This document shows positions 56,657 to 59,230 of a stretch of 64,000 nucleotides of DNA, one piece after another. Position 1 is the stretch's first letter. Each line of letters opens with the position of its first letter. The translations under genes and the position numbers were made by a program. The stretch lies in the NCBI GenBank assembly GCA_045634865.1, contig JAZRBB010000002.1, forward strand, positions 197,162-261,161. Direction: 5' to 3'. The stretch is from Candidatus Enterousia sp. Its GTDB lineage: Bacteria; Pseudomonadota; Alphaproteobacteria; Rs-D84. The notes beneath the pieces are model-generated. The model worked only from the letters and a program-made list of their open reading frames with translations. It was not told the origin of the DNA and did not search any database.

Positions 56657-59230
56657 ATGTTAAAACGATTGATGCAGATTTTGTGTTTGTTGCCAATATT
56701 TGCGGCTGGTTCTGCATACGCTGTCACATGCCAAAGTAATGAATTTGAATACAATGGCGAATGCATAGAAAACAAATTCCAAATTACAACCACAGATGAA
56801 GCATCAGCATTTGTTTTCAAGTTTCAAATATCTGCCAAAGGAACATTTTATGTTGATTGGGGCGACGGCAACACACAACAAATTACACGTAGTAATACAA
56901 CAATAACTCAATATTCACACAGTTTTGCTGCTGGGCAATATACTATCAAGCTTGGTGGCTTGGCAACAGAATATAATACATCATCCAGCCCATATACACC
57001 CGCAATAAGATTTGGCGAAGATGCAAATGGTGCAGGTGGTAATTCTGCTAGTAATTTATATAGTATATCTGGTTCGCTTAGTGCCATATTTCCAACAATT
57101 GGATCTGGCGAAGCTGCAAGATACAGACCGCATTTTAATACTGTTTTCAGAAATTGTAAAAATCTGACCGGTACAATTCCAGATGATTTGTTTGGACGTA
57201 TTGTGAACGGTGTATACCAAGGAATTTCTGGTATTCCGATTGGACATATGTTTAACGGAACGTTTTACGGTTGTTCGGGTTTAACAGGTTCAATACCAGA
57301 CACCTTGTTTGGTCGTGAGGTCAACGGAACATATTATGGTATATCTGGTTCACCAATGACATATATATTTTATGGTACCTTTTATGGTTGTTCCGGGTTA
57401 ACCGGTTCAATACCAGAAAACTTGTTTGGCAGATATATCAATGGAACATATTATGGTATATCTGGCACACCTTCAGCAAGCATTTTTCAATATACTTTTG
57501 CATATTGTACTGGTTTAAGTGAAACAGATATTGATGATCCTGATAACCCTGGTATGAAATATGCAATACCACCCAATTTGTTTGCGGGAATATCTGGAAA
57601 ACCAGCAAGTGCAATGTTTGCCCAAACTTTTGCTGCAATGTCAGGATTGAAAGGGACGATTCCAAAAGATTTATTTAAAAATATATCTGGCGCCCCAGCA
57701 GCAAATATGTTTATTACATTATTTTCTGGTTGTACTGGATTAAAAGGGTCTATACCAGGGACATTGTTTGCTGGTATATCTGGCGCACCGGCAACAGGCA
57801 TGTTCAAAACAACATTCAGCGGATGCGATCATTTAACTGGTGCAATACCTGCGGACTTATTTAGTGGTATATCCGGCGCCCCTGCTTCAGAAATGTTTTA
57901 TCAAACATTTTCTGGTTGTTCCGGTTTGACTGGCCCAATACCTGGGAATTTGTTCGGCGGGATATCTGGGGCGCCTGCAGGCAATATGTTTTATAGCACG
58001 TTTTTGAGATGTTCTGGATTAACCGGAACCGAGATTGATGATCCTGATCAACCTGGATATAAATACGCGATACCGCCAACATTGTTTAGTGGTATAACAG
58101 GTAGCCCGCGCACCAATATGTTTTATCAGACATTTGATGAATGCACAGGCTTGACCGGCACAATCCCTGGGAATCTGTTCGGTGGTGTTGTTGGCGCACC
58201 TGCAGATGGCATGTTTTATGCTACATTTTATAAATGTACGGGTTTAACTGGTTCGATACCCGGAACGTTATTCAGTGGCTTATCTGGTGCACCAGCTACA
58301 GATATGTTCAGAAGCACTTTCAATCAATGTAGTAATTTAATAGGCTCAATACCAGGTGATTTGTTTGCAGGGGTTGTCGGCAAACCTGCAAACACCATGT
58401 TTCGTGGAACCTTTCAAGCGTGTTCTAAACTAACTGGACCAATTCCTGGTAATTTATTTGCTGGGATTATTGGTAAACCTGCAGCACACATGTTTTATTA
58501 CACCTTTGACAACTGTACTAATCTTGGTAAAGACACAATTGGTGGAACATCAATGTATTATATACCACCTGAATTATTTGCAGGGATTGATAAAACAACA
58601 ACTGCGACATATCAGATGAACGGTGTGTTTAATAGTACTGGTTTGCTTACAACTTGTCCGGCGGGCACTTCACAATATATTACAGGGTTCGAGAGTTATT
58701 TTAGTGGTAAAAAATCATGCACGACATGTTCTGTGAATTATCCAAATTACGATACGACAAATGACCAATGTTATGCACAAATTACATATATTGACAGCGA
58801 CAATAATACATTATTGAAAACAGAAAATGTTTATTATGATGCTAATTATCCAAATGGTTATACTTTGCCGTCATACAGCCCAACAAAACCTGATACAGTT
58901 CTGGATAATTGGGAAAATGGTTCTGGGACAGTAATTGCTGCAAATGATGTTTTAACTGGTAATCAAGTGTTGTATTCTGATTGGGGTTTCAATTGCGATT
59001 CTGGACGATACTTTCATATTGGTAATGAACAAGTCTGCATTGCAGAAAGCAAACGTACAGAACACGCATTGGTGATACAGTATGACCCTGAACATACATA
59101 TTATATACACGCAACCCCGAACAGCGAACACGATTATACGATAAACAGTTCATCAATACATAAACTGAAAGCAGATTATAATGGAACGATATACAACCTT
59201 CACGACGCATCAGTATATTTCAGTGAGTAA
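56657..59230 (+). CDS. Secreted tandem-repeat surface protein (~16 copies of a ~31-aa unit resembling BspA-type LRR or DUF285)
   Basis: Signal peptide MLKRLMQILCLLPIFAAGSAYA. Repeating unit ...GISGAPA..MF..TFSGC.GLTG.IP..LFAG... Cys-containing C-terminal domain. Confidence 0.65.
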   Translation: MLKRLMQILCLLPIFAAGSAYAVTCQSNEFEYNGECIENKFQITTTDEASAFVFKFQISAKGTFYVDWGDGNTQQITRSNTTITQYSHSFAAGQYTIKLGGLATEYNTSSSPYTPAIRFGEDANGAGGNSASNLYSISGSLSAIFPTIGSGEAARYRPHFNTVFRNCKNLTGTIPDDLFGRIVNGVYQGISGIPIGHMFNGTFYGCSGLTGSIPDTLFGREVNGTYYGISGSPMTYIFYGTFYGCSGLTGSIPENLFGRYINGTYYGISGTPSASIFQYTFAYCTGLSETDIDDPDNPGMKYAIPPNLFAGISGKPASAMFAQTFAAMSGLKGTIPKDLFKNISGAPAANMFITLFSGCTGLKGSIPGTLFAGISGAPATGMFKTTFSGCDHLTGAIPADLFSGISGAPASEMFYQTFSGCSGLTGPIPGNLFGGISGAPAGNMFYSTFLRCSGLTGTEIDDPDQPGYKYAIPPTLFSGITGSPRTNMFYQTFDECTGLTGTIPGNLFGGVVGAPADGMFYATFYKCTGLTGSIPGTLFSGLSGAPATDMFRSTFNQCSNLIGSIPGDLFAGVVGKPANTMFRGTFQACSKLTGPIPGNLFAGIIGKPAAHMFYYTFDNCTNLGKDTIGGTSMYYIPPELFAGIDKTTTATYQMNGVFNSTGLLTTCPAGTSQYITGFESYFSGKKSCTTCSVNYPNYDTTNDQCYAQITYIDSDNNTLLKTENVYYDANYPNGYTLPSYSPTKPDTVLDNWENGSGTVIAANDVLTGNQVLYSDWGFNCDSGRYFHIGNEQVCIAESKRTEHALVIQYDPEHTYYIHATPNSEHDYTINSSSIHKLKADYNGTIYNLHDASVYFSE

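Follow-up and report, generated by a model that had tools for sequence, protein, structure and literature searches.

In a 64,000-nucleotide stretch of DNA from Candidatus Enterousia sp. (contig JAZRBB010000002.1; the whole stretch is referred to as the window), an open reading frame (ORF) that starts with ATG and occupies positions 56657–59230 on the plus strand encodes an 857-residue protein, a long-period form of the DUF285/BspA-type leucine-rich repeat (LRR) surface-repeat proteins that is new and covered by no family model. With a probability of roughly 60%, we read it as an exported, DUF285/BspA-like LRR protein that binds a ligand or acts as an adhesin and whose expression is gated by a structured leader RNA. 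This reading is built on the ORF itself, the repeats, the LRR fold as modelled, the homology to DUF285, the distribution of the family and the structure and conservation of the leader; from these we infer export, surface location, binding function and switching by the leader. GcrA, LpxA and LpxB are encoded in the window, and BamD adjoins homologues of the gene; the Lpx proteins and BamD indicate a diderm host, and GcrA an alphaproteobacterium, which we take to be uncultured and of the gut type.

A Shine-Dalgarno-like GGGGGA (56648–56653, plus strand), read from the sequence, lies 4 nt ahead of the ATG and is kept upstream of homologues, and the N-terminus "MLKRL..." is conserved among orthologues. 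Residues 1–22 (56657–56722, plus strand) form a predicted Sec signal peptide of the signal peptidase I type, MLKRLMQILCLLPIFAAGSAYA, in which sequence rules identify a basic n-region, a hydrophobic core and an A-x-A site, with cleavage predicted between AYA and the following VT. A20, A22 and C25 are invariant across 14 orthologues, and no lipobox was found in the N-terminus. An earlier, sequence-only reading of this DNA had given the ORF the same coordinates and length and had proposed a signal peptide, for which the sequence rules and the invariant residues now provide support.

The central part of the protein is a tandem array. A hidden Markov model (HMM) of the repeat unit, which was trained only on distant homologues (P0018–P0120) and did not include the window protein, finds 14 units in the window protein with a score of 560.6 bits; the best of 100 shuffles reached 5.2 bits. 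These units start at residues 158 (partial), 189, 228, 267, 311, 342, 373, 404, 435, 479, 510, 541, 572 and 603, and a partial fifteenth unit at residues 643–666 serves as a cap; the earlier count of about 16 repeats therefore has to be lowered. Unit length is 31 residues in nine cases, 39 in three, 44 in two and 40 in one. Each of the first three units (39 residues) contains an 8-residue insert predicted to form a beta-hairpin, the units at 267 and 435 (44 residues) share a conserved 13-residue acidic insert, (T/S)E/D-IDDPDxPGxKYAIPP, encoded at nt 57521–57565 and 58031–58069, and the unit at 603 has a 9-residue insert. The consensus reads GISGAPAxxMFxxTFxGCSGLTGxIPxxLFx both in the window protein, with its 31-residue period, and over 666 distinct units of the family; in 120 homologues, a unit spacing of 31 residues is the commonest (776 intervals), followed by 30 residues (191), so that the consensus and period first read from the sequence were correct. 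Positions M/F10–11, T/F14–15, C18, L21, G23, I-P25–26 and L-F29–30 of the unit are invariant, and positions 8, 9, 12, 13, 16, 24, 27 and 28 are hypervariable among the 666 units. A cysteine, which had been assigned to every unit, is present in 13 of the 14, and unit 311–341 has Met-Ser in its place.

Structure prediction, which the sequence-only reading had proposed as a check, returned an LRR-type solenoid of 14 units for residues 150–642 (57104–58582, plus strand). In the AlphaFold2 model based on 14 orthologues, the repeats reach a predicted local distance difference test score (pLDDT) of 85–98 and the N-terminal beta-sandwich about 90, and the last 130 residues are poorly modelled; the model fits the structural definition of the LRR superfamily, a curved solenoid of tandem 20–30-residue units with a parallel beta-ladder and a conserved core of hydrophobic and Asn/Cys residues. 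Its similarity to TpLRR and to 4fs7 (Bacteroides BACOVA_04585, which we take to be an LRR_5 member) is, as far as a model allows, real. In this fold, the invariant positions of the unit would form the hydrophobic core, the repeat cysteine would occupy the ladder position that is held by Asn or Cys in other LRRs, and the hypervariable positions together with the conserved acidic loops are predicted to form an exposed binding surface. We also considered disulfides between repeat cysteines and rejected them: the cysteine keeps to a single core position throughout these LRR-type units, and would more probably be a buried ladder residue.

The origin of the unit was traced through a single bridging protein, P0057, on which the homology link to DUF285 depends. 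P0057 contains three tandem modules that have a common cap domain; two of these modules consist of 33-residue repeats, IDTSSATxTSxMFxxTFxxCxNLTSIPAGLFS, which Pfam scores as DUF285 (34 bits against a cut-off of 25), and the third consists of repeats of the window type. A profile of the window-type unit aligns with the DUF285-type units of P0057 at an hhalign probability of 99.2% (E = 6.5e-20), and the DUF285-type region of this protein reaches 295 bits with the window-type HMM, against at most 4.4 bits in shuffles. Because P0057 carries both repeat types and the unit profiles align at 99.2%, the window repeat is, on sequence grounds, an LRR-fold unit derived from the DUF285/PARCEL type, with "ISGAPA" in the place of "DTSxxTxxS" and with 6 residues more than the canonical unit. 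Searches of Pfam and NCBIfam with five sub-fragments of the protein gave no usable matches (for a five-unit fragment, none at E<=10), and a precomputed PF03382 match is present in only 1 of the 120 best homologues. Thus the resemblance to BspA and DUF285 that had been noted earlier stands, whereas membership is not supported, since no named family model was passed.

The solenoid is flanked by conserved domains. The N-terminal cap (residues 23–149; 56723–57103, plus strand) comprises a Cys25–Cys36 hairpin, a PKD-like beta-sandwich ("FYVDWGDG") and the segment "ISGSLSAIFPT"; it has eight strands in the model, with a pLDDT of about 90, and in multi-module homologues this module stands ahead of every repeat block. 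Pfam recognizes the corresponding part of P0024 as PKD (E = 1.6e-11); the window cap has the "VDWGDG" motif and a confident beta-sandwich, but no Pfam match at E<=10 (PF00801/PF18911). Behind the repeats, residues 643–705 (58583–58771, plus strand; TGLxTxCPxGTxQYxTGFES) form a C-terminal solenoid cap with invariant cysteines at 667, 688, 691 and 705, which aligns (E = 4e-7) with a segment of P0085 that Pfam scores as Ephrin_rec_like; the window cap itself has no Pfam match. Next come a small beta domain (residues 706–777; 58772–58987, plus strand) that ends in "GNQVLYSDW", with predicted strands at a pLDDT of 40–65, and a C-terminal domain (residues 778–857, with the stop codon; 58988–59230, plus strand) that contains a Cys780–Cys794 hairpin and the sequence "PNSEHDYTINSSS...GTIYNLHDASVYF". 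The former may be related to Flg_new (the InlB B-repeat), although hhalign comparison with three Flg_new domains of homologues gives a probability of only 23%, with no Pfam match (PF09479/PF18998). The latter is present in 24 of 120 homologues, in each of them as the very last domain, and over its first half it is similar to the N-terminal cysteine hairpin and first strands. The "Cys-rich C-terminal domain" of the sequence-only reading is thereby partly borne out: six cysteines fall in the last 191 residues (667, 688, 691, 705, 780 and 794), all invariant across the 14 orthologues, but the enrichment is modest. In total, the eight non-repeat cysteines are invariant in these orthologues and lie in four close pairs or clusters, which fits an oxidizing, extracytoplasmic location.

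The family is small, and few of its members have names. An exhaustive HMMER search of 1.84 billion cluster representatives (50% identity) returned 1,232 proteins at a threshold of E<=1e-3, of which 596 reach E<=1e-30. Giants of 3,000 to 7,600 residues (the largest has 7,626), with up to 32 matched stretches, are numerous among them, and homologues of 3,700 to 7,600 residues combine the module with Flg_new, PKD and Ephrin_rec_like domains. The few named homologues are all listed as "MAG: Alphaproteobacteria bacterium" or "Proteobacteria bacterium". Among GTDB species representatives, close relatives were found only in one goat-omasum metagenome-assembled genome (MAG), which has two paralogues, and several metagenome contigs may, as read from labels such as XIEF21, come from ruminant-gut studies. 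Within the window, tblastn found no paralogue of the LRR gene.

The gene is unusually variable. Among P0001–P0017, whole units have been inserted or deleted, giving 11 to 18 units that match the strict motif. By its sequence, the array is old at the DNA level: its copies are only 60–76% identical, with spacings that are multiples of 93 nt, and Tandem Repeats Finder detects no tandem DNA array. The range of 11 to 18 units bears out the earlier expectation of repeat-number variation, but fast, slippage-type change is unlikely because of the low identity of the copies. Locus L006 is syntenic with the window, and its secG, leader and intergenic region are 89.6%, 95.7% and 95.4% identical to those of the window, respectively; the first 393 nt of its LRR gene are only 68% identical (59% at the amino acid level). 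The far greater divergence of this gene than of its flanks indicates diversifying selection or allelic replacement. Homologous genes are located in at least eight unrelated chromosomal contexts, where the upstream neighbours are secG, MurJ-RlpA, an HI0933-like gene, IMPDH with a 468-residue hypothetical protein, ribosomal protein L25, OmpA, LysS or ribosomal protein L33; in the window, the upstream SecG was identified by Pfam.

Between secG and the LRR gene lies a structured leader. The secG gene ends in its own intrinsic terminator (56372–56403, plus strand; a 14-bp stem followed by a T-run), and the LRR gene is therefore a separate transcription unit. A candidate promoter, TTGATT-16-TAAAAT with an extended TG, was located at 56422–56449 (plus strand) by a consensus scan; the number of promoter-like sites in the region equals chance expectation, and similar boxes stand ahead of the leader at other loci. 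The leader RNA itself, which we call type A, covers 185 nt (56455–56639, plus strand). It has a P1 hairpin and a long stem that encloses a junction of several hairpins, where the stretch UGCGAAUAU(G/A)UUGAAUAAGCAC is invariant, and it ends in an intrinsic terminator, AACCGCC-N8-GGCGGTT followed by T6, at about 56611–56638. This terminator stands some 18 nt upstream of the ATG, too close for a promoter to fit in between. The minimum free energy of the leader is -70.1 kcal/mol (z = -6.36).

Type A leaders also precede homologues in five other distinct loci (L006 634–819, L010 1760–1939, L011 798–977, L012 752–938 and L015 796–979), and a second type, B, is found at three more (L001 5719–5939, L014 735–956 and L016 716–940). 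The leader-bearing homologues lie in at least five genomic contexts with different upstream genes, apart from L006, which shares secG with the window, and when folded independently the leaders reach one common architecture. A MAFFT alignment of the six type A leaders yields 38 consensus pairs in which all cells (228/228) are standard pairs, compared with 31–45% when the 3' partners are slid; compensatory double changes occur in 5 of the 38 pairs, four of them consecutive in the long-range stem, and the covariation score exceeds that of 500/500 shuffles. Two further stems that MAFFT misaligns covary by eye (e.g., GAGUAG/CUACUC, ACGUAG/CUACGU and ACCUAG/CUAGGU), and a variable hairpin keeps its pairing as well. 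A covariance model of the leader finds one copy in the 64-kb window and detects type B weakly. A metagenome scan for the pattern of terminator plus ribosome-binding site added one locus, the other leaders having come from contigs that encode orthologues. No Rfam family matches the leader, whether that of the window (searched at E<=10) or those of six other loci (E<=1).

Because an intrinsic terminator directly precedes the ribosome-binding site, the sequence suggests that the leader acts like an attenuator or riboswitch that is off by default. Types A and B alike contain a 9-nt segment with two possible partners, an arm of an internal hairpin and a copy of that arm that overlaps the 5' arm of the terminator. 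Attenuation by a leader peptide was considered and rejected, as the only small ORF in the window leader is not conserved in L010. In locus L007 (2036–2090; homologue P0002), a natural internal deletion has fused the first hairpin, of which only the 5' half is left, with the 3' arm of the terminator, so that the structured domain is lost, and the gene caller translated the remnant as an N-terminal extension of the protein ("...IRRILIVESGGKF-MLKR"). This deletion may represent a locked-on variant; some homologue loci have no leader at all.

On this basis, we propose that the protein would be exported by Sec, with cleavage of the signal peptide, and that in the mature form 14 long units would build a rigid, curved solenoid of the LRR type, capped at the N-terminus by the PKD-like beta-sandwich and at the C-terminus by a disulfide-bonded, Cys-rich motif, behind which two small beta domains would follow. 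Its most likely role, judged by analogy with BspA, TpLRR, DUF285 and internalins, is that of an adhesin or recognition module for proteins or glycans on or outside the cell; known ligands of BspA-family and DUF285 proteins are fibronectin, fibrinogen or beta-actin (PMC8707762). Diversification would proceed by gain and loss of units and by rapid sequence change or allelic replacement, and the structured leader would gate expression in response to some signal.

Several observations weigh against this proposal. Pfam assigned the whole protein to no family at E<=1, including DUF285 and LRR_5 (PF13306), the PARCEL model TIGR02167 reached 9.5 bits against a cut-off of 30, and PF03382 was not matched. 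The C-terminal 130 residues are not confidently modelled (pLDDT <50), and a separate AlphaFold2 run on the C-terminal 218 residues gave a pLDDT of 38.7. The covariation in the leader comes from only six type A sequences, which represent about three lineages, and the antiterminator pairing is 10–21 kcal/mol less stable than the terminator fold at equilibrium. A Sec signal in a diderm delivers a protein only to the periplasm, and the search for an outer-membrane anchor, an autotransporter barrel, a lipobox or a neighbouring secretion gene was negative for the window protein, in the window and at the homologue loci; in the window, the scan for secretion genes covered the ORFs outside 28.4–50 kb, two short ones close to each end excepted.

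This last point bears on the possibility that the protein is a scaffold within the periplasm or envelope, whose solenoid binds a partner within the bacterium, for example a protein of the envelope or one associated with peptidoglycan, and has no contact with the surroundings of the cell. The Sec signal peptide is indeed the only targeting signal found, there is no nearby anchor or dedicated secretion partner, and homologues often lie beside the envelope genes secG, MurJ-RlpA, BamD and OmpA. These neighbours, though, change from locus to locus, so that the synteny is not functional, and divergence in excess of the flanks, variation in repeat number and giant relatives with Flg_new and PKD domains are all typical of exposed proteins; we therefore regard such a scaffold as rather unlikely. 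A secreted effector that acts on or in a eukaryotic host or protist cell, in the manner of YopM, SlrP or the Legionella LRR effectors, appears more improbable still, since direct delivery from the cytoplasm by type III or type IV secretion is hard to reconcile with a cleavable Sec signal and with conserved cysteines of the disulfide type, and since the module also occurs in proteins of 4,000 to 7,600 residues, which are unlikely to be translocated effectors.

The adhesin reading with its gated expression can be extended, tentatively, into a joint reading of the locus. Promoter, leader and gene might then constitute a portable unit in which a new class of cis-regulatory RNA (types A and B), acting as a riboswitch or a factor-dependent attenuator, would turn on, in response to a signal, the production of a hypervariable LRR protein of the surface; natural deletion variants, L007 and the loci without a leader among them, would be permanently on, and the "GISGAPA" repeats would define a new class of LRR derived from DUF285. 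If the leader is a genuine switch, it would be a new class of regulatory RNA tied to the expression of a surface protein, and, being short enough for direct testing, it may be a more useful lead than the protein. For the protein, our results mean that about 1,200 clusters of "hypothetical" proteins are built from one module (PKD-like cap, LRR solenoid and Cys-rich cap), that a dedicated profile model would annotate these clusters, and that an unannotated branch with a 31-residue period is added to the LRR/DUF285 surface-repeat superfamily. Such proteins are obvious candidates for the attachment of gut and rumen Alphaproteobacteria to hosts, protists or particles.

Directly 3' of the LRR gene lies a GC-rich intergenic element (59231–59440, plus strand; 58–64% GC, compared with about 38% for the window overall), which by its sequence looks like a miniature inverted-repeat transposable element (MITE) or a repetitive extragenic palindromic (REP) element. 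It is about 150–210 nt long and about 60% GC, with a conserved core and terminal inverted repeats (AGTTCCCCGCCCATGGCGGGG ... CCCCGCC..GGCGGGGAACT); the plus strand of the window copy has a strong fold (z = -4.35), and Rfam gave no match. A second copy stands at 33167–33315 of the window, others are found at 4775–4837 and 7877–7978 of L003 and at 8417–8505 of L002, and copies lie beside LRR genes in three genomes and also 3' of a tuf-like gene. We considered the element as part of the LRR gene and rejected this, because L004 and L005 share the synteny of L003 without it and because the copy at 33167–33315 adjoins an unrelated gene. The adjoining, mobile-looking element might favour another reading, in which the repeats have no expressed function of their own and are either a decayed relic or a store of sequence variants of the kind proposed for some PARCEL/DUF285 ORFs (PMC2996958). 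This reading is very improbable, given an intact ORF with a ribosome-binding site, the conservation of signal peptide, caps and core residues across 14 orthologues, the conserved regulatory leader ahead of the gene, and no second copy in the window that could serve as exchange partner.

Other features of the window deserve mention. A 455-residue protein encoded at 50264–51631 (minus strand), which has neither a signal peptide nor a Pfam match, contains C-terminal LRR-like repeats of about 22 residues ("FLxWNEELKVANFPKLETxxxx") that are also a direct repeat in the DNA, with 93% identity; it adjoins an ankyrin-repeat protein (51729–52712, minus strand), and their sequences suggest an effector pair for interaction with eukaryotic cells. 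Three large ORFs without Pfam matches, at 12683–14593 (plus strand), 16068–18584 (plus strand) and 9586–11508 (minus strand), may encode further lineage-specific envelope or secreted proteins: two of the products (636 and 838 residues) have signal-peptide-like N-termini and many cysteines, and the remaining one (640 residues) is very acidic and Pro/Glu-rich, with one transmembrane segment. A protein of 252 residues encoded at 60552–61310 (minus strand), with no Pfam match, a basic N-terminus and one transmembrane segment, ends in short G-N-(L/I)-(F/Y)-(V/I) repeats (e.g., "IDGNLFIQN", "IRGNLFVRN" and "VQGNIYVSP") whose sequence resembles that of a beta-helix or bactofilin-like fold. Finally, 62551–62590 is a 40-nt, 85%-identical copy of the 5' half of tRNA-Arg(TCT), 244 nt upstream of that tRNA (62793–62869); it is not called by ARAGORN and could, from its sequence, represent either a tRNA fragment or an integration-site scar.

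Among known systems, the leader is best compared with terminator-type riboswitches and attenuators, with which it shares a structured domain of about 150 nt, an invariant core, a terminator that abuts it before the ribosome-binding site and, conserved in the leaders of the family, an alternative pairing that overlaps the 5' arm of the terminator. It differs from them in lacking an Rfam match, a known ligand or factor and a conserved leader peptide, and in an alternative fold that is much less stable.

For the protein, the only sequence-profile match in the PDB is FLS2 (E = 0.02), through the segment LxGxIPxxL. The likeness to plant-specific LRRs (FLS2, BRI1-like and PGIP ectodomains) is limited to LxGxIP and is insignificant at the family level; the plant unit has 24 residues and the kingdom and domain context is unrelated, so this likeness is probably due to convergence or to very deep LRR ancestry. 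BspA-like and TpLRR proteins, such as Tannerella BspA and Treponema LrrA/TpLRR, have a unit of about 23 residues, compared with 31 in the window protein, and differ in their caps and C-terminal domains; the window protein is also without their LRR_5 match and their type IX secretion or lipoprotein anchor. Listeria internalins have LRRs of 22 residues, and Pfam and NCBIfam detect none of their N-cap, 22-residue LRRs, Ig-like inter-repeat region or LPXTG/GW anchor in the window protein, whose host, moreover, is a diderm. The order of parts is nonetheless alike, with a signal peptide, an N-terminal cap and an LRR binding solenoid followed by small beta domains, and larger members of the family carry true Flg_new (InlB B-repeat) domains.

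DUF285/PARCEL proteins, which occur in Mycoplasma, Listeria, marine bacteria, protists and giant viruses, are also compared here. Their canonical unit has 25 residues (PMC2996958), whereas that of the window protein has 31, with 39- and 44-residue variants, replaces the "DTSxVTxM" hallmark with "ISGAPA" and adds an "IPxxLF" segment, and the array is enclosed by a fixed PKD-like N-terminal cap and a Cys-rich C-terminal cap. The dyad-symmetric repeat DNA described for PARCELs (PMC2996958) was not seen in the window repeats, where 1.5 kb contains only three weak inverted pairs. Common to both are tandem amphipathic repeats with a core of the "MFxxCxxL" type, placement in exported or surface proteins of unknown function, a variable number of repeats and a patchy phylogenetic distribution.

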